The position numbers and the translations under genes were made by a program. 18,205 nt of DNA from IMG/VR virus record IMGVR_UViG_3300033405_000009; one strand, written 5' to 3'. How positions within the stretch are numbered: position 1 is the stretch's first letter; each line of letters begins with the position of its first letter. Of the stretch, positions 861 to 8,938 are shown piece by piece. The stretch is from a virus. A model generated the notes under the pieces. That model saw only the letters and a program-made list of their open reading frames with translations, had not been told where the DNA came from and did no database searches.

Positions 861-890
861 GAGTGAATTGTTCATCTGTTTTATGGTTAG

Positions 891-1240
891 TGGAGAAGCG
901 GGGAATCGAACCCCGGTCCGCGAAACGCCCGATTCGTCTTCTTTCACGTGCGTAGTCGTCATATCCCTGACGACTGAGTTCGCAGATTCGGCTGCGACCT
1001 AGATGACCTGTGGATCTCGATCCTTTCGCCGGTCAACCCGCGTCGGATCCAGCCCTGGTGGTTCATGCCCGGAGATCAGGTACTAGGACGATCTTCCTGC
1101 CGGACAGCTTCACGGTTTCTTAGGCCGCGAGGCGCGCTGCGTTGTCGTTCGCAATTGGACGGCCCATTTGGTTGTGGCGGGACGGGCGCCGCCTGCACGC
1201 AGACTAAATCTTCCTTTCCACGTCGAAACCGATCTTCCCC
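891..1240 (-). ncRNA. ssrA: tmRNA (SsrA), about 350 nt; tag reading frame GCG AAC GAC AAC GCA GCG CGC CTC GCG GCC TAA = ANDNAARLAA*
   Basis: Minus-strand 5' end GGGGAAGATCGGTTTCGACG matches the tmRNA 5' consensus (GGGG...TTCGACG). The 3' end GGACCGGGGTTCGATTCCCCGCTTCTCCA is a tRNA-like T-arm plus acceptor strand CTTCTCC that pairs with the 5' GGGGAAG. An internal short ORF ends in the canonical ...LAA tag followed by TAA. CCA is not fully encoded (sequence continues ...A CTA). Confidence 0.85.
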
Positions 1241-1466
1241 AAGGTGGGACCATCTGAACATTACAACAGAAGCCTAGGATTCCATGATTAGACGTACGAG
1301 AGCTTCGTCACAACTTTCGTCGGGCGGAGTCGAGGCTTCTAACCCGCACTTATCACATCGGAATTTGGTGGAATTAATCTGTTCCCATTCATGTGATATG
1401 TCCATCATGAATGTGATCTTGGTGAGATCGTGAGCGAGGCGTCCGAAATCCACCTTGAGTTTTACA

Positions 1467-2030
1467 TTAGGCAGCAGCCGGTGGGGGAGCGTAATACTTG
1501 TTTACGAGCTCCATGAACTGAGTCATGGGGAAACTTGGTCCAGGGTCTGTGTGGGTAGTCTCATGATATTTCGCAGAAATTGCAGCATGCGTAGTAATTC
1601 CACATGCAGAATCATCGAGGTCACTTGCCTCAAGAACAGTAGTCGGAAGACCGTTACGAGTGCAGATATCTGCAACCAGTTGAGCACATAAATCGAGCAT
1701 TTGCATATCATTCAACCACTGCTCAGTTGTGTCTCTGGCATATCCGGACATTTCAATATGAATTCCGTGGAGATTGCCAATAGGTCCTGCAGCCCACGCA
1801 GCATCCTTCTCATCTACACACTGGACGATCTCATCGACGTCGACAGTGTAATGGGCTGAGACTTTTGAACTTGCGGCTGCGAACATGTTTGCCACGTTCT
1901 TAGCAGTTACAGTGCTCTCAGTCGCTTCTTCATCATGAAGTACCACCCAGAGTATTTGACGGCCTCCTACGGGGTAGGAATGAATGTTAGGGGACGTAAC
2001 TTGAGAAGTAGCTAGGCTTGATCCGTTCAT
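1467..2030 (-). CDS. N-acetylmuramoyl-L-alanine amidase, Amidase_2 / PGRP / T7-lysozyme fold (AmpD-like or endolysin-like)
   Basis: 187-aa ORF, ATG start, TAA stop. Motifs HYTVDVDEIVQCV...AWAAGP...HGIHIEMSG and ...GITTHAAIS...THTDPGPSFP resemble the zinc-amidase_2 signature. Confidence 0.6.
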   Translation of the reverse strand: MNGSSLATSQVTSPNIHSYPVGGRQILWVVLHDEEATESTVTAKNVANMFAAASSKVSAHYTVDVDEIVQCVDEKDAAWAAGPIGNLHGIHIEMSGYARDTTEQWLNDMQMLDLCAQLVADICTRNGLPTTVLEASDLDDSACGITTHAAISAKYHETTHTDPGPSFPMTQFMELVNKYYAPPPAAA

Positions 2031-2070
2031 CGACCTAAGATGAGATGAAGGATCTATTGTATGCTCTCCT

Positions 2071-2403
2071 ATGGGAGAGTTTTGCTATTCCACGGTCAAC
2101 AGTCCTCCGACCCCGAAACAGATGGAAGAAGATCTCATCCGCCTCAACACCGAGATCTTCGGCACCAAATACATCATCAAGAAAATTGATGGTGTCAACT
2201 GGGGCTGGAAATGGTGCTTTATGCTCCCACCAGAATCAGGTTGGACTGATGCAGCCTTCTCTGTGGTTCTATTGCGGGACAAACGAATGGAGTTTAAAGT
2301 CCCGAGATCACAATGGGATGAATATTGGGAGGACCAACAGAAAATCCGCCGTAAACTTGTTCGTCTTTATGGCGGTGCCAAAAGTAAGAAACAGCGCCCC
2401 TGA
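2071..2403 (+). CDS. hypothetical protein (alternative ATG at 2122); 3' end overlaps tRNA1 by 8 nt, convergent
   Basis: 110-aa ORF with globular-looking composition (KYIIKKIDGVNWGWKWCFMLPPESGWTD...). One of very few plus-strand genes in the window. Confidence 0.4.
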   Translation: MGEFCYSTVNSPPTPKQMEEDLIRLNTEIFGTKYIIKKIDGVNWGWKWCFMLPPESGWTDAAFSVVLLRDKRMEFKVPRSQWDEYWEDQQKIRRKLVRLYGGAKSKKQRP

Positions 2404-2467
2404 CAGGATTCGAACCTGCGTCCCCGATTTTGAAGATCAGAGCTCGACCGTTGAGACTTACAGGGGC
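2396..2467 (-). tRNA. tRNA with anticodon UCA (UGA-decoding suppressor or Trp(UCA)-like); discriminator G; CCA not encoded
   Basis: Reverse complement GCCCCTGTAAGTCTCAACGGTCGAGCTCTGATCTTCAAAATCGGGGACGCAGGTTCGAATCCTGTCAGGGGC. Acceptor is 7 bp GCCCCTG/CAGGGGC. T-arm is GCAGG-TTCGAAT-CCTGT. Anticodon arm is CTGAT-CTTCAAA-ATCGG, giving anticodon 34-36 = UCA. The D-arm is irregular: a 3-bp CTC/GAG stem with a GG-containing loop. Confidence 0.65.
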
Positions 2468-2486
2468 ATGGATTCTATCGAAAGTG

Positions 2487-2816
2487 CTATTTATCTTTGA
2501 AATCTTCGATTAAGAAAATTCGTCGTCCAGATGCCTGATAATCGATGTTTCGACGAAGAGGTGGAGCTTTTGCTTCTCCACGAAAAACCTCCATTGTGTG
2601 ATCCCGACAAAGGACACTCTCTTTATCTGGGACGGCCCATCTCATCTCAGTGCAATAAGAACGCATGCATTTGATGGTAGACTCGATAGTAGGCCCTGCT
2701 TCTAGCGCTTTTTGAAGCTCTTCCATTTGAGCCTTTGCGAGCACTTCTCTTTGTTCACGAGCCACTTTAGGGTCGAAATCTAGAAAACGCTGGATAATCT
2801 TTTCTTTATCTTCCAT
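2487..2816 (-). CDS. hypothetical protein (109 aa) lying between the two UCA tRNAs; its ATG starts 1 nt after the encoded CCA of the upstream tRNA
   Basis: ORF with ATG start (cat at 2814-2816) and TAG stop. Contains Cys/His (CMRSYCTE...CRDH). No family recognised. Confidence 0.45.
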   Translation of the reverse strand: MEDKEKIIQRFLDFDPKVAREQREVLAKAQMEELQKALEAGPTIESTIKCMRSYCTEMRWAVPDKESVLCRDHTMEVFRGEAKAPPLRRNIDYQASGRRIFLIEDFKDK

Positions 2817-2891
2817 TGGTGGTTCCGAAGGGGTTCGAACCCTCGTAGGGCGATTTTGAAAATCGCTGCCTGACCACTAGGCTACGGAACC
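2817..2891 (-). tRNA. tRNA with anticodon UCA (UGA-decoding), canonical cloverleaf, discriminator A, CCA encoded
   Basis: Reverse complement GGTTCCG-TA-GCCT-AGTGGTC-AGGC-A-GCGAT-TTTCAAA-ATCGC-CCTAC-GAGGG-TTCGAAC-CCCTT-CGGAACC-A-CCA. Every stem pairs. U33 and A37 are present, and anticodon 34-36 = UCA. The T-arm is palindromic (GGTTCGAACC), but only the minus-strand orientation gives a cloverleaf. Confidence 0.8.
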
Positions 2892-2897
2892 GAAAAC

Positions 2898-3878
2898 TTA
2901 ATGAAGTTCCCATGGCGGTGGACCATCCATATCATACAAGAACCCGACTTCCCAAACCTCATTCACAGGTGGATACTTGCTTTCGTAACGAAATTCGTGC
3001 GTTGTTCCACATTTTGTTCCTTCTTTCGCCAAATATTTGATGATTGAAACAACGTTCGCTCCACCTTGACCTGACTGGACGAGTTTCCGATAAGTGGCGG
3101 TTTTGATTCGCCCAATCTTGTGGAATTTGCGCTGGGCTTCTTCGCCGCCCTTGAGGAGAACATTGTAATCAACTTTCTCGTAAACTTGTTCGGCGCCCTC
3201 GAAGATGACTGTCAATTTCATCCTTTTTCCGGGGTCCACTTCGGTGATCTCGGTCTTGATTCCGACCCCGAATCCGTATGGATTCTTGAAGGTCAGATCC
3301 ACCGAATAGCAATTAGGATTTTTCCGATTGTGCGCGTTTTCTCGATGGTTTCCATTGCACTCGACTGGATAAGCCACCGTCGCATCCATCCCTTTCGGGA
3401 TATACTTGATCATTCGTGTGTGCGGTTGGCGCGAAGTGATTTCCATCCCGCTCATTAACGCGGCTGCATGAAGAGTGGAGCTTACTTGACAGACCCCGCC
3501 GCCGATTCCGGGCGTCATTTCTCCCATAAAAATGACTGGCGCGTCGATGAATCCATTCTCTGCTACGCGAGGCCCGACTACATCATTAAAACTGAACTCT
3601 TGTTGTGGATCCAACACAGTTCGAAGCTTAGTAGCAGCGAGCTCGATGTTGGTAGCTCTCGCGTTTACGTCATATTCGGTTGAATACCGACCTAACTCAG
3701 GGCTTGGACGGTGATCCGGCGGGGGAAGCCTCTCTTGTTCACTCTTGAGTACGGAGATGCCTGGTGAAATCTCCACCATCTCCGGCGGAGGTTCCGCAGA
3801 CTTCTCAGGTGGAGGCGTCGGAGGTGCTGGCCTCGAACAGGCAACCACTAAGAACAAGAGGAAAGTAAAACGCTTCAT
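2898..3878 (-). CDS. VanW-domain lipoprotein
   Basis: 326 aa. Signal peptide MKRFTFLLFLVVAC with lipobox VVAC, followed by a Pro-rich linker. Carries the VanW signature GGGVCQVSSTLHAAAL. The ATG overlaps the pyrE TGA stop (ATGA). Confidence 0.6.
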   Translation of the reverse strand: MKRFTFLLFLVVACSRPAPPTPPPEKSAEPPPEMVEISPGISVLKSEQERLPPPDHRPSPELGRYSTEYDVNARATNIELAATKLRTVLDPQQEFSFNDVVGPRVAENGFIDAPVIFMGEMTPGIGGGVCQVSSTLHAAALMSGMEITSRQPHTRMIKYIPKGMDATVAYPVECNGNHRENAHNRKNPNCYSVDLTFKNPYGFGVGIKTEITEVDPGKRMKLTVIFEGAEQVYEKVDYNVLLKGGEEAQRKFHKIGRIKTATYRKLVQSGQGGANVVSIIKYLAKEGTKCGTTHEFRYESKYPPVNEVWEVGFLYDMDGPPPWELH

Positions 3879-4444
3879 TCCAAGAACTGCTCTTTCGTGT
3901 AGATGGCAATAGCTTCGATTCCGGCAGCTTTGAATGCCTCATCGGCGCCTTCATTACGATTTACAAGCCCCACAACCCCAAGCACCTCGAAGCCTTCATT
4001 TTTCAAGGTTTGGATCGCACGGAGTGAAGAACCGCCCGTGGTAAATACATCCTCAAGAAGGACTACGGGAGTACCAGCAGGAAGAGATCCCTTGCCTTCT
4101 ACAAGAGCGCCCGTCCCATGGTCCTTCTTGGCTTTCCGCACATAGAGGGCGGGCAAATCTTGGATTTCACTCACGGCACTCAAAAGAGATACCGCGCTGG
4201 CTAGAGGACAACCACCAAGTTCGACACCAGCTACGGCTTTAGCATCTGGGAAATTTGACGCGACCGCCTCCAGCATGACCTGTCCGGCCCACAAATGGCC
4301 TGTGGCGTCCAAAATAGCCTGTTTGCAGTCGATGAAGAAATCGCTTTCTTTGCCGGAAGCCAGAGTAAACTTCCCGAAACGGACCGATTTGGTCCGAAGT
4401 AGACGAGCGAGGTCCTTGTGCGGATCGGAGCCTAGGTGAATCAT
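3875..4444 (-). CDS. pyrE: orotate phosphoribosyltransferase
   Basis: 189 aa. FGKFTLASGKESDFFIDCK and the PRPP-binding motif VVLLEDVFTTGGS match OPRTase. TGA stop. Confidence 0.85.
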   Translation of the reverse strand: MIHLGSDPHKDLARLLRTKSVRFGKFTLASGKESDFFIDCKQAILDATGHLWAGQVMLEAVASNFPDAKAVAGVELGGCPLASAVSLLSAVSEIQDLPALYVRKAKKDHGTGALVEGKGSLPAGTPVVLLEDVFTTGGSSLRAIQTLKNEGFEVLGVVGLVNRNEGADEAFKAAGIEAIAIYTKEQFLE

Positions 4445-4452
4445 GGCTTACG

Positions 4453-4845
4453 TTACAGTAGGCGTCTTTGCATGAGATCGACTAATCGCATGACCATTTC
4501 TTCGTCGATATCATCACGTGGTTCCAACGGCTTGTAAGATTGCTCGTGTGGAAGTCCGAAATAAATATCGCAAATTCGGACTAGCGGAAGGCTTCCTACG
4601 GAATAGACATCAAGGATGGAACCTCGACATCTCGCTTTCGTCGCCGGGATTAACAGCCAGGAATGATCGGCCATCCCATGGTGACCGTCTTGGACCTCCA
4701 GGCCTAAGATGACTCCAACAGCCCGAGTGAGTTCGTGACAACGTAGCCCGGGAATTTCAGGGAGAGACTCCACGAGAACCCGAGCTACGCCGTACAACGC
4801 TTGTTCTTTCTTGGTGAAGACGTTGGTTACGCTATATCCTCTCAC
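4453..4845 (-). CDS. hypothetical protein (130 aa, GTG start as called)
   Basis: ORF only; TAA stop; no motif recognised. Confidence 0.35.
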   Translation of the reverse strand: MRGYSVTNVFTKKEQALYGVARVLVESLPEIPGLRCHELTRAVGVILGLEVQDGHHGMADHSWLLIPATKARCRGSILDVYSVGSLPLVRICDIYFGLPHEQSYKPLEPRDDIDEEMVMRLVDLMQRRLL

Positions 4846-4854
4846 ACGGTCAGC

Positions 4855-5193
4855 TTACGCCGACATGGACTCAGTTTCCGGCAACGCTAAACCAAGTCCT
4901 CGACACAACCGCCTAGATCGATCCCCTGGCTCGAGAGTAATCGCCGTCAACGCGTTGTTCATGTCAGGCTCTCGGAATTGAGAAATTTGAAGTCCTCGTT
5001 CCTCAGCCTTTTTCACGAGCATTCAAAGCTCGCGCTCGTCACGAACCGCGAGCATGGCGATGTAATTCGAGTTGCGGTACCAATCCATCCAGTCCGGATG
5101 CTCCGCTGCGTACGCCAGCGCTGCATGGATCGATTGCACTGCCTGATCCCCATCCGGAAGATCCGAACGAGTGATGACATACAACTTTTCCAT
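4855..5193 (-). CDS. PTH2-family peptidyl-tRNA hydrolase-like protein interrupted by an in-frame TGA at 5023-5025 (needs UGA readthrough); alternative start GTG at 5229
   Basis: Upstream part KLYVITRSDLPDGDQAVQSIHAALAYA...IAMLAVRDEREL resembles the PTH2 N-terminal half ([25 protein letters not shown]...). Directly after the TGA the same frame continues MLVKKAEERGLQISQFREPDMNNALTAITLEPGD and matches the PTH2 C-terminal half (...AEELGL...DAGRTQIAPGS.TVLAIGPGP). The ORF ends at TAA 4855-4857. Alignment was done from memory. Confidence 0.45.
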
Positions 5194-5197
5194 GAGT

Positions 5198-5614
5198 TTA
5201 GACCGTCGCTGCGACCATAGCCGCCTCACGTGGATAAGGAGCCTTCGGCCTCGGAGGAGGCGCCGAAATGGCCCCGGAGGGGTCCTGGAGCCAGCTCACG
5301 ATCTGCTCTTTCTTCAAGTCAGGCAAATGCTTCTGCAAGAGCTTGAAGAGGTAATCCGGGTAGGGCATGTTGTGTTCGAAATGCCACACATCCCCAACCT
5401 TTCGGATACTCACAGTGCCGACAGTGGACCAATAAGCGCCGTCCAATGCCTGCATGTGATGCGATCGTTCGATGCGCCTATACTTGAAACCCCTGATGTA
5501 ACCCCAAGCGAGATTACGATAGCGGTCTCCGTGTGAGCGATCTTCACGAATCGCGTTATGAAGCGCCTTTACCCGAGCGCGTTCGACGCGCTGTTCATCC
5601 GTCATCTGATACAT
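5198..5614 (-). CDS. hypothetical protein (138 aa)
   Basis: ORF with ATG start and TAA stop; basic and aromatic-rich; no family recognised. Confidence 0.4.
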   Translation of the reverse strand: MYQMTDEQRVERARVKALHNAIREDRSHGDRYRNLAWGYIRGFKYRRIERSHHMQALDGAYWSTVGTVSIRKVGDVWHFEHNMPYPDYLFKLLQKHLPDLKKEQIVSWLQDPSGAISAPPPRPKAPYPREAAMVAATV

Positions 5615-5759
5615 GGTAACTCTCCTGGTAAATGGTAAACGTCGTTGCGAAATTGGGAACGACGGACACCAGGAGGTCCACGGATGCAGTTAATTCAGAG
5701 GTGGTGCTTCATGATTCAACCATCATAACCGTTGTTGCTGCAGCTGTCAAGTTCGGGGT

Positions 5760-5832
5760 GCGCCGAGTCAGATTCGAACTGACACGTGCCCGCTTATGAG
5801 ACGGGGGCTCTGACCGATTGAGCTATCGGCGC
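5760..5832 (-). tRNA. tRNA-Met (anticodon CAU; elongator Met or Ile2-type cannot be distinguished)
   Basis: Reverse complement GCGCCGA-TA-GCTC-AATCGGTCA-GAGC-C-CCCGT-CTCATAA-GCGGG-CACGT-GTCAG-TTCGAAT-CTGAC-TCGGCGC. All arms are canonical. No C1:A72 mismatch or 3 GC anticodon-stem signature of initiators. CCA not encoded. Confidence 0.8.
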
Positions 5833-5841
5833 AGTATGTTG

Positions 5842-5913
5842 TCCGCCGCCCGGGAGTTGAACCCGACCACAAAGTTTATAGGACTTCGTAGCTCAACCGG
5901 AGCGTTGCGGCGG
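5842..5913 (-). tRNA. tRNA-like gene with apparent anticodon UAU (Ile, AUA-reading) but atypical C33 and a short D-loop; possibly aberrant or a pseudo-tRNA
   Basis: Reverse complement CCGCCGC-AA-C-GCTC-CGGTT-GAGC-TAC-GAAGT-CCTATAA-ACTTT-GTGG-TCGGG-TTCAACT-CCCGG-GCGGCGG. The 7-bp acceptor and T-arm are good. The anticodon loop CCUAUAA lacks the conserved U33. Confidence 0.45.
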
Positions 5914-5985
5914 GGATTTCGGATTTCTCCGATATATGTATCCTCCGCCGCATGGTTTTATGACCTCCGATTGACCTGATGTTGA

Positions 5986-6933
5986 TCAAGTGAGTTCTCG
6001 TACTCGTCGGACAATTTTGCGTACCCGCCATGGACGTAGCATCCCAACGACTCCGAGTTTTACAGCGGATACTCCGAGCCTCGTTAGAATCTCAGCGGCT
6101 TCCACCGACATTACCCCACCACCTACGATTAGGGGTTTCTTGAGCTTAGCCATTTTAGCTCTTTGAGCGATCTCAAGTACTAATGGAAAGATTGGATTCC
6201 CTGACATTCCACCACCCCCAATATGGGATAACGGAGAAGCAGACTGTCCCCAAATCTGATTCCAATTGATCTTATGGGATAGATTTCCCCATTTCAGTGT
6301 GTTGGAAACTGAAACTGCATCGCAAGCTGGGTGATTCATGACTTCCCGGATGATCTCCACTGAAATATCAGGTCCGAAGTTGGGGACGAGAGGGATTCCC
6401 AGAACCTTGGCAATGTCCAAAGCTCCACCAGCTTCTTCCGCAAGTTCGGACGTTGAAAGTCCAACATTCGGGCAAGAGAAATTCATTTCTAAAGCGAATG
6501 GACTTTTGAACTCCGGAATGTGAGGTTTGAGCATCTCGACGAAACTGTGAAGTTCCATCATTCTGTGGACGAGAGATGAATCCACGCTCATGAATGAGAT
6601 GAGGAACGGTCTCTCTCGAGCTTGCCATTTACCGCTCATGAGCAACGCATGAGCCCCAGGACCGCTTAATCCCACAGCATTTAGAACGGCCCCCTGAAGG
6701 AACTTAACCTTTATGCAAGAAGGGAGAAGGTCTTTCGGAGAGACTCCATCTGCCTCAAGAGGCATGTTCCCCGCACGGGGGTGGAGGGTCGTGGTTTTAG
6801 CAACGAAGGTGGCCCCTTCATAGTCAAGGCCGAATGGCTTCATTAGCCTATGATACCAATATCCATCTCCGTAAAACCCGAGGGAACCGGATGAGCACCA
6901 AACTGATCCGTATTCCGTCCCTCGTAACTTCAC
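5986..6933 (-). CDS. pyrD: dihydroorotate dehydrogenase, class 1 (active-site Cys)
   Basis: 315 aa. Motifs EMNFSCPNV, GGGGMSGNPIFPLVLEIAQRA and LIVGGGVMSVEAAEILTRLGVSAV. TGA stop. The GTG start as called is uncertain. Confidence 0.75.
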   Translation of the reverse strand: MKLRGTEYGSVWCSSGSLGFYGDGYWYHRLMKPFGLDYEGATFVAKTTTLHPRAGNMPLEADGVSPKDLLPSCIKVKFLQGAVLNAVGLSGPGAHALLMSGKWQARERPFLISFMSVDSSLVHRMMELHSFVEMLKPHIPEFKSPFALEMNFSCPNVGLSTSELAEEAGGALDIAKVLGIPLVPNFGPDISVEIIREVMNHPACDAVSVSNTLKWGNLSHKINWNQIWGQSASPLSHIGGGGMSGNPIFPLVLEIAQRAKMAKLKKPLIVGGGVMSVEAAEILTRLGVSAVKLGVVGMLRPWRVRKIVRRVRELT

Positions 6934-7015
6934 ATTTCACCTTCTAAAACCGGCCCTGTGCGGCATCGTAACCAGGATAGCGGTCCCTCATCGGTTCCAC
7001 CTGGACTAGGTAGAG

Positions 7016-7450
7016 CTATCTCGTAGCCGCTTCGGCGTATGCCTTAGCCGCCAGTTCCTTGGCTTCATCTTCTTCATCCGGCCAAGCCCAGCACATCCCC
7101 AGGAAGGGAGTCATAGACTGACGACCATACGAACAAGACGTTGCCCTTTCCAACTGCCAACCATAAGGATCGGTCTTGTTCTTATCATCAGAGACGTACA
7201 CGAGATTGCAGCATGGCACATAGAAGGCATTCTGATGCTCCGGAGAGTTGGTCAGATTGATTTCATCGTGCTTCTGCTTAAAATCTGCGACCGTTTGACC
7301 ATCCGGACCCCCATGGAACCAGTTAGTGACGATAGCATTGTGTGCGACCCGGTGACTGTCGAAGAAGATGACCCTACAGCCGATCTTGAATGCTCTATCC
7401 ATGATGCCCTGTCTTTCTACGGCTTCGAAGCCGCACAGGACAGGTTTCAT
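7016..7450 (-). CDS. hypothetical protein (144 aa)
   Basis: ORF only; TAG stop. Confidence 0.35.
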   Translation of the reverse strand: MKPVLCGFEAVERQGIMDRAFKIGCRVIFFDSHRVAHNAIVTNWFHGGPDGQTVADFKQKHDEINLTNSPEHQNAFYVPCCNLVYVSDDKNKTDPYGWQLERATSCSYGRQSMTPFLGMCWAWPDEEDEAKELAAKAYAEAATR

Positions 7451-7647
7451 CTCGACATTACCAAGAAAGGTCTAATATTGAACGACCAATTTGACTGGTA
7501 GTGTCGCTTTTGAGGATATGGCGAAATGAATTGGAACCATATCCTTGATTGTAAAAGGGATTGGGGATAACCGTCACTACTGTCGGAATCTCTTACCCTC
7601 GACCTGCTAATATGTGGGTTGAACACTTCACTCATCAAGAGGAAGCC

Positions 7648-7821
7648 ATGGCCGCTAAGAAGACTGCAAAGAAGACCGCCAAGAAGCCTGCTGCCAAAAA
7701 GACGGCAGCCAAGAAGGTTGCCAAGAAGACGGCGAAGAAGCCTGCTGCGAAGAAGGCTGTCAAGAAGGCTGCTGCGAAGAAGCCCTCGGCTGCGGCTACC
7801 GCACCGGCTCCTCAGGCCTGA
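7648..7821 (+). CDS. histone H1-like Lys/Ala-rich nucleoid protein (57 aa, AKKTAKKPAAKK repeats)
   Basis: ATG at 7648 preceded by aagAGGAAgcc (SD, about 5-nt spacer). Protein is MAAKKTAKKTAKKPAAKKTAAKKVAKKTAKKPAAKKAVKKAAAKKPSAAATAPAPQA. Followed by a strong intrinsic terminator. The longer ORF call from TTG 7561 and the alternative-frame ORF 7619-7885 are artefacts. Confidence 0.7.
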   Translation: MAAKKTAKKTAKKPAAKKTAAKKVAKKTAKKPAAKKAVKKAAAKKPSAAATAPAPQA

Positions 7822-7830
7822 AACGGTCTC

Positions 7831-7870
7831 ATCTAGGTCGGGGGTGGAATTTATCCCCGACCTAGATTTT
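7831..7870 (+). terminator. rho-independent terminator of the H1-like gene
   Basis: Perfect 11-13 bp inverted repeat atctaggtcgggg-gtggaatttat-ccccgacctagat followed by tttt. Confidence 0.65.
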
Positions 7871-7911
7871 CATAGTTGGCGTTGAGCTTTCCATCAAAAC
7901 GCTGACTTAAG

Positions 7912-8271
7912 ATGGATGAAGTCAATGATACCCCCCGAGTCTGTGAGGCTTGTGGAGGGGATAAAAGCACTACGTGTCATTGGTGCACCAGCGGATTTCA
8001 AAATTTAGTCCAGCAAGAACGTTGGCAGAAATTCCGCCAGAGAATGGGGAAAATCTCTGGGACTTATTCCTTGTTTCAAGGAATGGTTGAAGAGTTATTG
8101 GAACGCATCGACGGGTTAGAAGGCGAAGAAGCTCAGTCCTTGGTTGTGGAGGGTCGAGAGGCTCTATGCAAATGGTTAATTTCAGAGCACGGAACTCCTG
8201 ATAGAGACGAAGCCGGTAAAGCCCTATTGGTGAGTTACCGGCATTGTCTCGACTATTTCGCTAAGAGATAG
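7912..8271 (+). CDS. hypothetical protein with N-terminal Cys4 zinc-ribbon-like motif (CEACGG...CHWC)
   Basis: 119-aa ORF, TAG stop immediately abutting the convergent RF gene stop. Confidence 0.4.
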   Translation: MDEVNDTPRVCEACGGDKSTTCHWCTSGFQNLVQQERWQKFRQRMGKISGTYSLFQGMVEELLERIDGLEGEEAQSLVVEGREALCKWLISEHGTPDRDEAGKALLVSYRHCLDYFAKR

Positions 8272-8938
8272 TTACCAGTCCCCTCGCGAGTATTCCTTAT
8301 ATTTCCATTGTCGACCAGTTAGATGGTCATTGACTTGACCATCCTGAACTCGAACAGTTCTTCTCTTATCGCCGCGCATCCCGGACCCCACTTGAGCTCG
8401 TCGATCAGCGGCTCGAGCAGAAGTCACTCTTTCATGCTCCGAAGCCCAGAGACGGGCACGAAGAAGTGAAAGAGCGGTTTCCTTGTTCTGTTTGAGGCTG
8501 CGCTCTGTTTCACATCGAACTTGAAGCCCGGACGGTTCATGCTTTAGAATTATAGCCGTTTCGACTTTATTCCTAGCTTGTCCGCCGGCTCCGGATCCGC
8601 GAGTTGGGATCCATTCGAGATCGTCTTCTCGAATATGAACCTGCGCTTCAGTCGGGATGGGTAAAACTGCGACTGTAATAGTCGAAGTCTGAACCCGGCC
8701 CCTTTTCTCTGTTGGAGGAATCCGTTGCCAGCGATGCCCGCCGGACTCATTCGCAAAGGTCTCGTCTGCTGCCTTCCCGGACACTTGGAAGGTAACGATT
8801 CCCGGTCGTCTGTCCGCTAGTTCGACGTCAAAGACCCCTCCGGACTGCCAAACGGGCGTAAATTCCGAATTGCTCTTCTACGAGGAGTTTGGCGTCTGCG
8901 CCGCCTTCTGCTGCCCTGATCTCGACTACAATACTCAT
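8272..8938 (-). CDS. class-I peptide chain release factor, RF1-like and N-terminally truncated, requiring a +1 programmed ribosomal frameshift at 8828-8833 (CUU UGA C)
   Basis: Frame 0 from ATG (8936-8938, SD AGAGG upstream) gives MSIVVEIRAAEGGADAKLLVEEQFGIYARLAVRRGL then TGA. The +1 frame continues DVELADRRPGIVTFQVSGKAADETFANESGGHRWQRIPPTEKRGRVQTSTITVAVLP...RGSGAGGQ...RTVRVQDGQVNDHLTGRQW. This aligns contiguously with RF1 domains 2-4 (EIRAGTGG...RYAEARRW/RVEIM...GGHRVQRVPATE...SGAGGQ). Shift-site context ccGGAGGggtCTTTGAC matches GGAGG, 3 nt, CUU-UGA-C. Domain 1 (about 105 aa) is absent. The recognition loop PPT fits the RF1 PxT motif, not the RF2 SPF motif. Confidence 0.75.

Follow-up and report, generated by a model that had tools for sequence, protein, structure and literature searches.

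The viral sequence IMGVR_UViG_3300033405_000009 (18,205 nucleotides; this whole stretch is called the window) carries a gene for a short release factor (RF) of the RF1 type, the sequence of which calls for a +1 frameshift. The initial annotation, made from the sequence alone, had listed in the first 9 kb a transfer-messenger RNA (tmRNA), two tRNAs with the anticodon UCA, a tRNA(CAU), an aberrant UAU tRNA-like gene, a PTH2-like peptidyl-tRNA hydrolase and an RF1-like factor. All of these were recovered on the minus strand, at or close to the places given for them. The reading preferred here, with a probability of roughly 70%, is that the window belongs to a huge-phage genome with a conserved, loosely arranged takeover kit, neither an operon nor an integrated island, in which an RF1 without domain 1 would be made by a prfB-like +1 shift and would have a limited functional link with the UCA tRNAs. 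The frameshift-dependent short RF1 is the notable result, and the cluster as such adds little.

The short RF1 gene and its frameshift site

The RF gene is located on the minus strand (8272-8938) and consists of two open reading frames (ORFs), which encode 221 residues when joined by a +1 shift. ORF1 (8828-8938) starts with ATG at 8938-8936 and runs through 36 sense codons (MSIVVEIRAAEGGADAKLLVEEQFGIYARLAVRRGL) into UGA. ORF2, in the +1 frame (8272-8829), encodes the rest of domain 2 with the motif PPT, the GGQ domain and a domain 4 ending in YSRGDW (Pfam PCRF and RF-1). Both are connected by the cassette GGAGGGG-U-CUU-UGA-C (8827-8841), in which a Shine-Dalgarno (SD)-like GGAGGGG (8841-8835) is separated by 1 nucleotide from CTT TGA C (8833-8827). 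As far as the sequence can tell, standard decoding of this mRNA gives no functional protein, and recoding is required to include the N-terminal GG-x-DA segment in the product. In RF1, the stop codon is contacted at its first base by the equivalent segment.

The closest relative of the window phage is the IMG/VR contig 3300032782_000001 (436,316 bp; protein identity 24-66%), in the following called the sister phage. Its RF gene contains an identical CGGAGGGGTCTTTGACC, and UGA stands at the shift site in both phages. The equivalent ORF of 36 residues was called in the JGI annotation of the sister phage, with a weak match to PCRF.

In an alignment with T. maritima RF1 (E=9e-43), the joined 221-residue product matched residues 88-307, with no interruption where the two frames meet; its identity to canonical RF1 was 37-38%. 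The decoding elements of the RF1 type are present (Gln of WQR, PPT as PxT, Thr of TST), as are GGQ, WQRIPPTEKRGRVQTST and SGAGGQ. An AlphaFold model (pLDDT 83.9) had RF1 chains as best matches in the PDB, with a TM-score of 0.83 and a root-mean-square deviation of 3.0 Å to free RF1 (1rq0). The product thus has in common with canonical RF1 (prfA) the PCRF and RF-1 domains, the decoding residues, GGQ and the fold. It differs in the absence of domain 1 (about 105 residues) and of the last ~35 residues, in a family-specific C-terminus (Y-x-R-G-x-W), in its need for recoding and in its scores on the NCBIfam prfA models, which were 194.6 and 190.9 bits (cut-offs 400 and 423) for alignments covering model positions 105-317 of 347 and 114-325 of 361. 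The full four-domain architecture of RF1 (about 360 residues) is not reached. By its sequence, the protein is a paralogue of RF1 without domain 1, and its earlier description as a truncated, frameshift-controlled, RF1-like factor was correct.

Other families fitted less well. With the prfB model 127.6 bits were obtained (cut-off 370), which is below the prfA score, and PPT stands in place of SPF, so that membership in RF2 was rejected. PrfH is not known to have a PxT/SPF decoding motif. This factor (RF-H, paired with RtcB) resembles the window product in its length of about 200-220 residues, its missing domain 1 and its GGQ; however, the PrfH model gave 69.4 bits (cut-off 166.65), the best PrfH match in the PDB had an E-value of 2.8e-8 compared to about 1e-42 for RF1, and no rtcB was found among the called neighbour genes of the RF gene. 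No NCBIfam model claims the short RF1 family.

Recurrence of the site in phages and Myxococcota

Protein searches with the RF product returned many relatives of 190-236 residues. One class covered the whole query in one frame; the other lacked the first 36 residues and began with ..GG(V/L)F(D/E/S).., as obtained when GGAGGGGUCUUUGA is read in +1. For the family scan of IMG/VR an alignment was used as query, a single RF protein having found nothing. The scans yielded 347 stretches of IMG/VR viral contigs and 356 stretches of species-representative bacterial genomes, from each of which 80 loci were examined (160 in all), the viral ones on contigs of up to 482 kb. The analysis of the site covered 140 shifted sites, the window included.

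A +1 shift at CTT-stop was required in 139 of the 160 loci, 68 of them on viral contigs (stop TGA/TAG/TAA 55/11/2) and 71 in bacterial genomes (47/22/2). It followed codon 36 in 136 of these 139 loci, among them all 68 viral ones; three bacterial loci with longer N-termini have it after codons 44, 44 and 65. The bacterial loci were overwhelmingly from Myxococcota and included the complete chromosomes of Minicystis rosea and Archangium gephyra. Pfam scans of the RF neighbours in Archangium and Minicystis gave nothing showing whether these copies sit in prophages.

Over the 140 sites, the stop was UGA in 103, UAG in 33 and UAA in 4. CTT and the first T of the stop were invariant (140/140), and the base after the stop was C in 81%. 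An SD-like element was present at 103 of the 140 sites, GGAGG being dominant at -11 to -7. Among the unshifted genes with a readable N-terminus (n=18), only one had an SD-like element, and CTT was not kept. All components of a prfB-type +1 cassette, i.e., SD-like element, CUU, in-frame stop, an ORF in +1 and conservation in homologues, were thereby found. Co-variation of the PxT-type motif (PPT, PPN, PPS) with the stop at the shift site was looked for and was not observed.

Two of the 18 unshifted genes, from phages of 467 kb and 183 kb, have TAG or TGA in frame at the codon where other members shift, and the frame continues behind it. These genes of the readthrough type are those of IMGVR_UViG_3300037067_027616 (locus L017, 10001-10654; stop at codon 37, GGA TAT TAG ATG) and IMGVR_UViG_3300028920_002946 (locus L023, 10001-10648; stop at codon 37, GGG CTA TGA CTG), and both loci otherwise look standard-code. 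Since two phages carry an in-frame stop there in place of the shift, the stop at codon 37 appears to be a selected feature that is usually escaped by a +1 slip.

An alternative explanation is damage: the RF frameshift, together with a UGA in the PTH2-like gene described below, would then be due to errors of assembly or to mutations that inactivate auxiliary genes in decay. This was excluded for the RF gene, because the CTT-stop +1 site with its SD-like element recurs in so many loci (139/160) with both halves conserved. Judged by this recurrence, the frameshift is programmed.

The site corresponds to that of prfB (RF2) in its SD-like GGAGG(GG) closely upstream, in CUU, in the stop and in the C that follows, and the loss of the SD-like element from uninterrupted genes (1/18 here) is also known from prfB (PMC12421855). 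Differences are that the window gene is of the RF1 type and that its site is located in domain 2 (about residue 122 of T. maritima RF1), compared to codon 26 in domain 1 of prfB; the two positions are not homologous. Furthermore, the stops include 33 UAG, a codon that is never found at prfB shift sites (PMC12421855), and with UGA the short RF1 product should not recognise its own shift codon, which would differ from simple autoregulation.

In textbooks, programmed frameshifting has been peculiar to prfB, the only RF gene for which it is described. According to a survey published in 2025 (12,753 genomes; PMC12421855), it has not been demonstrated in prfA, no convincing case was encountered, and RF1 is concluded to do without it. 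The GeneTack clusters contain RF2 only, and in a review of 2016 readthrough of early in-frame stops in RF genes was unknown in bacteria. The literature was searched for frameshifting in RF1 or in phage RF genes and no description was found, in a limited search that is no proof of novelty; a programmed +1 frameshift in genes of the RF1 type seems to be undescribed. We are inclined, if only slightly, to regard the RF1 paralogues without domain 1 from huge phages and Myxococcota as a large uncurated family gated by a stop at codon 37, usually escaped by a prfB-like +1 shift at UGA, UAG or UAA and in at least two phages by readthrough, and as the first case of programmed recoding in an RF1-type gene. 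The family comprises hundreds of phage and Myxococcota sequences and combines a prfB-like cassette elsewhere in the gene with the use of all three stops and a readthrough variant.

Gene callers split or truncate the short RF1, database entries are fragments of 170-215 residues, and cluster names say only 'peptide chain release factor 1'. The ORF2 product of 170 residues is on record on several contigs (JGI, ENA, Logan). A rule for these genes is needed in annotation pipelines.

By analogy to prfB, a ribosome would reach CUU UGA C after 36 codons, GGAGGGG would pair with 16S rRNA, and peptidyl-tRNA-Leu would slip from CUU to UUU, after which translation in the +1 frame would yield the 221-residue factor. 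The yield of the shift would rise when the stop in the A site is decoded slowly, again as in prfB. With UAG or UAA as shift stop, an RF1-type product could regulate its own synthesis; if this is true, an RF1 could genuinely autoregulate at UAG sites, and at UGA sites the phage RF1 would be responsive to the RF2 of the host and to the suppressor tRNAs of the phage. In the window phage the yield would report the activities of host RF2 and phage tRNA(UCA) and not the level of the product itself, because the stop is UGA, which is not expected to be read by an RF1-type factor. The factor would add termination capacity at UAA and UAG, with which 77% of the 44 ORFs scored in the readable surroundings of the window end. 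The family is a natural system in which to ask what purpose a sensor of termination efficiency serves if it senses a codon that does not belong to its product, and it is relevant to the way in which phages readjust termination after infection.

The neighbourhood of the gene was compared over the 80 phage loci. At least one tRNA was present within 10 kb of the RF gene in 47 of them and at least 15 tRNAs in 27; a tmRNA was present in five. UCA suppressor tRNAs within this distance were found in the sister phage only, and PTH2 in the sister phage and one other. A family-wide link of the RF to PTH2 or to UCA tRNAs was therefore rejected: the general association is that of the RF with tRNA arrays, and only the clade of the window phage associates it with UCA tRNAs and PTH2.

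Several side observations were made at these loci. In tRNA arrays adjoining the short RF1, ARAGORN called tRNAs with four-base anticodons (L011, 7510-7587, taag; L025, 8451-8525, taag; L016, 1850-1927, ctcg; L075, 13299-13374, complement, tgaa; L084, 5575-5670, gttc), which could be quadruplet decoders, intron-containing tRNAs or artefacts. The ENA contig ERZ25039587 contig_58339 (L004; 763,830 bp; 345747-366415) is rich in ORFans and has an uninterrupted short RF1; if this contig represents one phage genome, it is larger than the record of 735 kb given in PMC7162821. On the Polyangiales chromosome OZ245758.1 (L156; 3449708-3460392), a short RF1 with its shift after codon 44 lies beside 29 tRNA genes. 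The GC content of this stretch is 0.60, compared to about 0.69 in other Myxococcota loci, and it is probably an integrated tRNA-array element or a prophage. At several loci from Myxococcaceae and Polyangiales, tRNA-Tyr and tRNA-His directly precede the RF gene.

Genomic setting and use of UGA

Exact matches of gene products placed the window, reverse-complemented, at about 36.6-54.8 kb of the ENA metagenome contig ERZ27256913:k141_649736 (62,892 bp), of which 34.6 kb could be read (record positions 27303-61952). A longer contig of the phage, with 76.7 kb, is also on record. Besides the genes treated here, the readable part encodes an HNH nuclease, a sigma-70 factor, an AAA_28 protein, a Dam methylase and a collagen/K1-lyase-like protein, and the majority of its genes are ORFans. 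Six more tRNAs (Pro, three Ser, Thr, Gln) are located 6-8 kb past the far end of the window. The order Dam, RF, dihydroorotate-dehydrogenase-like (DHODH-like) gene, tRNA(UAU), PTH2, pyrE, VanW, two tRNA(UCA), tmRNA and HNH is common to the window phage and the sister phage, whose proteins are about 60% identical at this locus. A megablast search of INPHARED phages with the whole window gave no match.

The gene set had initially been called typical of jumbo phages or of mobile translation islands, and the two halves of this proposal fared differently. The phage-like contig and the synteny with a viral contig of 436 kb, which includes the tmRNA, support the former; the locus is a piece of a huge-phage genome, and its arrangement is conserved in the clade. 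The genes are not dispersed in the close relative. The latter would mean that a mobile translation island had inserted itself into the chromosome of a bacterium, at a gene for tmRNA or tRNA. The 3' ends of such genes are common integration sites, and the short RF1 does occur in complete Myxococcota chromosomes, once with an array of tRNA genes alongside and with locally low GC content (the Polyangiales case above). At the window locus, however, the GC content is flat (0.47-0.55), the repeat search found no att-like direct repeats flanking the tmRNA and tRNAs (the sole direct-repeat family is that of the AKK repeats, which is coding), further tRNAs are found beyond the window, and both flanks are phage-like and rich in ORFans throughout the 34.6 kb. 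Among the genes called in this part no integrase was seen, nor an aminoacyl-tRNA synthetase, nor SmpB (by Pfam), the latter two being genes that the initial annotation had proposed to look for. For these reasons we conclude that the locus is part of a huge-phage genome and not an integrated or compositionally distinct island; an integrated island at this place is largely refuted and most improbable.

A translation kit of this sort is ordinary for huge phages, because RFs, tmRNA and tRNAs in such phages have already been published. Phages of more than 200 kb encode RF1 or RF2, ribosome recycling factor (RRF), tmRNA, SmpB and many tRNAs, according to Al-Shayeb et al. 2020 (PMC7162821). The loci studied here agree with that account in their tRNAs, tmRNA and RF and in that the RF lies inside tRNA arrays in many phages; truncation of the RF, a frameshift, suppressor tRNAs and PTH2 are not reported in the parts of the article consulted. 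The tRNAs would presumably add to the decoding capacity of a phage that differs from its host in composition.

The two UCA tRNAs are encoded on the minus strand. The first (2817-2891; 75 nucleotides; A73, CCA encoded) was detected by ARAGORN and by Rfam (61 bits); it has a short variable arm and the anticodon loop UUUCAAA, and shares 76% identity with one tRNA(UCA) of the pair in the sister phage. The second (2395-2467; discriminator G73) was not called by ARAGORN and was found with Rfam (45.9 bits, gathering score 29). Except for an irregular D arm, its arms (acceptor, anticodon, T) are regular, and its anticodon loop CUUCAAA is normal. Both are thus Rfam-supported and not false positives. 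Both show the anatomy of opal suppressors, i.e., a canonical fold, UCA at positions 34-36 of a 7-nucleotide loop and U33, which makes them candidate opal suppressors. ARAGORN labelled the first one 'SeC' because of the anticodon alone. An identity as tRNA-Sec, for which a long variable arm, an 8/5 or 9/4 acceptor/T helix and about 90-100 nucleotides were the criteria, was ruled out for both, which have 72-75 nucleotides, a 7/5 cloverleaf and a short variable loop. Nearest-neighbour comparison with 788 phage tRNAs failed to assign an amino acid to them, many isotypes being matched at 0.71-0.78 identity. Between the two genes lies an ORFan of 109 residues (2487-2816, minus strand), which starts right after the encoded CCA of the first tRNA(UCA) and has no counterpart in the sister phage, where the two tRNA(UCA) are just 24 bp apart.

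In the PTH2-like gene (4855-5193, minus strand; 112 residues), the frame is interrupted at 5023-5025 by a TGA (GAG CTT TGA ATG), which is absent from the initial annotation. The gene product reached 30.0 bits on Pfam PF01981 (cut-off 23) in a match that spans the TGA and needs it to be read as sense, and 24 bits on the NCBIfam Pth2 model (cut-off 126). Readthrough is needed for the full-length protein because a +1 slip at the TGA meets a stop after three codons. The gene of the sister phage is uninterrupted, with Met at the position of the TGA. A homologue search with PTH2 gave one match only, which was uninformative.

Here the explanation by damage has more in its favour than at the RF gene: the UGA is specific to the lineage, an ATG follows directly, and the UAU tRNA nearby is visibly degenerate. 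Two assemblies, a 35-kb JGI contig and the ENA contig, were identical over the 6,171 bp compared. Against damage, the downstream half is open and the product is 59% identical to that of the sister phage over 116 aligned positions, across the stop; the fragment of 56 residues that ends at the TGA is on record for eight contigs; and two cognate tRNA(UCA) genes are encoded 2 kb away. The recurrence on eight contigs and the identity of the two assemblies speak against a one-off assembly error. A scan of JGI metagenome contigs for exact patterns around the UGA gave no match. As an account of both genes together, damage is improbable.

The use of UGA was analysed by translating all frames with TGA as sense and comparing them to the sister phage. 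Homology supported one in-frame UGA in the 34.6 kb, that of PTH2; in the sister phage, of which about 20 kb were compared, it supported none. An in-frame TGA in the DHODH-like gene was only apparent, being upstream of its GTG start. A general recoding of UGA in the window was rejected: code-11 ORFs tile it, all three stops are used, and reading UGA as sense merely inflates off-frame ORFs. In 44 scored ORFs of the 34.6 kb, TAA accounted for 43% of the stops, TAG for 34% and TGA for 23%. TGA ends 6 of the 21 window genes, where suppression would add 9-71 codons. The gene for an N-acetylmuramoyl-L-alanine amidase, the endolysin (1467-2030, minus strand; Pfam Amidase_2, E=2.4e-20; PHROG 12609 endolysin, E=1.9e-37), just downstream of the UCA tRNAs, has no in-frame TGA. 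On these grounds, i.e., the single supported in-frame UGA, the genes ended by TGA and the endolysin, the visible region is in the standard code.

These data also bear on whether the phage turns the infected cell to UGA as sense for its late genes, with the tRNA(UCA) pair and the RF1-type factor as a switch next to the lysis gene. Modules of suppressor tRNA and RF have been described in recoded phages (Borges et al., bioRxiv 10.1101/2021.08.26.457843), among them the Jade phages, in which TGA is recoded. In common with the Jade module are a UGA suppressor tRNA together with RF1, module genes in the standard code and a position upstream of a lysis gene, the endolysin being about 360 bp downstream of the second tRNA(UCA). 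The pair is conserved in both phages, the RF is of the complementary specificity type, and one reproducible in-frame UGA exists, in PTH2. In contrast to Jade, no tryptophanyl-tRNA synthetase (nor any other aminoacyl-tRNA synthetase) was seen near the locus of the window phage, the lysis gene is not recoded, no genome-wide recoding of UGA is visible in the 34.6 kb, and the RF is truncated and frameshift-dependent. UGA still stops the window genes named above, and 78 of the 80 other phage loci have no suppressor within 10 kb of the RF, UCA tRNAs accompanying it in the sister phage only. No major capsid, terminase or tail-tube gene was visible in the part that could be read. A module of the type described by Borges et al. 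is unsupported in this part of the window phage, and we consider it unlikely.

It had further been suggested that the cluster forms one functional unit for the management of UGA readthrough. This is weakly supported and at best partly right. The part that stands comprises the two conserved tRNA(UCA), the UGA that both phages have at the RF shift site and the UGA of PTH2 on eight contigs. Against a single unit are the lone in-frame UGA, the sister PTH2 without UGA, the use of TGA as a stop and the occurrence of the RF elsewhere without UCA tRNAs or PTH2. Because the sister PTH2 has no UGA, the conserved tRNA(UCA) pair must have another conserved target, and the RF shift site is the only conserved UGA-dependent feature seen in the region read. 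A functional link among UCA tRNAs, PTH2 and the RF site thus would be real but limited: tRNA(UCA) would be needed for full-length PTH2 in the window phage and would compete with frameshifting at the RF site, where readthrough would give a dead-end peptide about 27 codons longer. In view of its two conserved UGA-reading tRNAs and the UGA-interrupted PTH2, the clade is a candidate for partial or incipient recoding of UGA.

Several points count against a takeover kit with a frameshifted RF1 and a limited link to the UCA tRNAs. The His of HTST, which is the stacking His of RF1 and RF2, is replaced by Gln (GRVQTST) in the window RF and in about half of the family, and the codon specificity of the short RF, which is deduced from motifs, is uncertain because of this replacement. 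If the factor did read UGA, the site would be a plain autoregulator like that of prfB. Since the readthrough product at the RF site would be a dead end, suppressors and RF may oppose rather than help each other. The UGA of PTH2 could be a recent nonsense mutation that inactivates the gene. Compensation for stop-codon use is not the general reason for the RF, because phages of high GC content also carry it; in high-GC loci of the Myxococcota type, TAA and TAG make up 36% of the stops and TGA 64%. A host among the Myxococcota is only suggested, by the occurrence of the short-RF1 family.

Neighbouring genes and RNAs

The tmRNA gene (ssrA; 888-1240, minus strand; tag ANDNAARLAA*) was found by ARAGORN and matched Rfam RF00023 over its full length (model positions 1-374) with 105.3 bits, above the gathering score of 47. 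It has a tRNA-like domain and a tag frame, and no gene for its partner SmpB was seen nearby; the tmRNA presumably works with SmpB of the host. A tmRNA with the tag ANDNGALRIAA is present at the equivalent place in the sister phage. Small Cys-containing proteins with the C-terminus (I/V)MES-stop flank the tmRNA in both phages, with several paralogues each (window, 435-629 and about 1270-1480, minus strand; locus L170, 17891-18175, 18172-18423, 18900-19148 and 20416-20688).

The tRNA(CAU) (5756-5833, minus strand; ARAGORN and Rfam, 64.6 bits) is of the elongator Met or Ile2 type and not an initiator, because it has G1-C72. Its acceptor stem has C4-G69 and C5-G68, which we take to be as in E. coli tRNA-Ile2 according to the identity rules. 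At a distance of 7 nucleotides follows the UAU tRNA-like gene (5841-5913, minus strand), detected only by ARAGORN (as tRNA-Ile(UAU)), with UAU at the anticodon position, C at position 33 and the T loop UUCAACU. No Rfam tRNA match was obtained for it even at E<=1. Its closest match among the 788 tRNAs (71%) was the canonical tRNA-Ile(UAU) of the sister phage, which is syntenic and has the acceptor stem in common. To judge by this comparison it is a degenerate copy, and the term 'aberrant' used for it at first was apt. Decoding of AUA may be the role of both genes.

The interleaving with cell-envelope and pyrimidine genes was confirmed. Besides the endolysin, the genes concerned encode a VanW-domain protein with a lipoprotein-like N-terminus (2898-3878, minus strand; Pfam VanW, E=1.6e-36; 56% identical to the sister orthologue), an orotate phosphoribosyltransferase (pyrE; 3875-4444, minus strand; NCBIfam TIGR00336, 141 bits versus a cut-off of 106.8) and the DHODH-like protein (5986-6933, minus strand; Pfam DHO_dh, E=1.9e-11; 63% identical to the sister gene). 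The DHODH-like product with the GTG start is absent from the records, a shorter start having been chosen by the gene callers. An unannotated ORF on the plus strand (7648-7821; MAAKKTAKKTAKKPAAKKTAAKKVAKK...) encodes an Ala/Lys-rich, histone H1-like product with AKK repeats, which correspond to a tandem repeat at 7650-7784; this ORF occupies the seeming gap between two genes for proteins of 144 and 119 residues.

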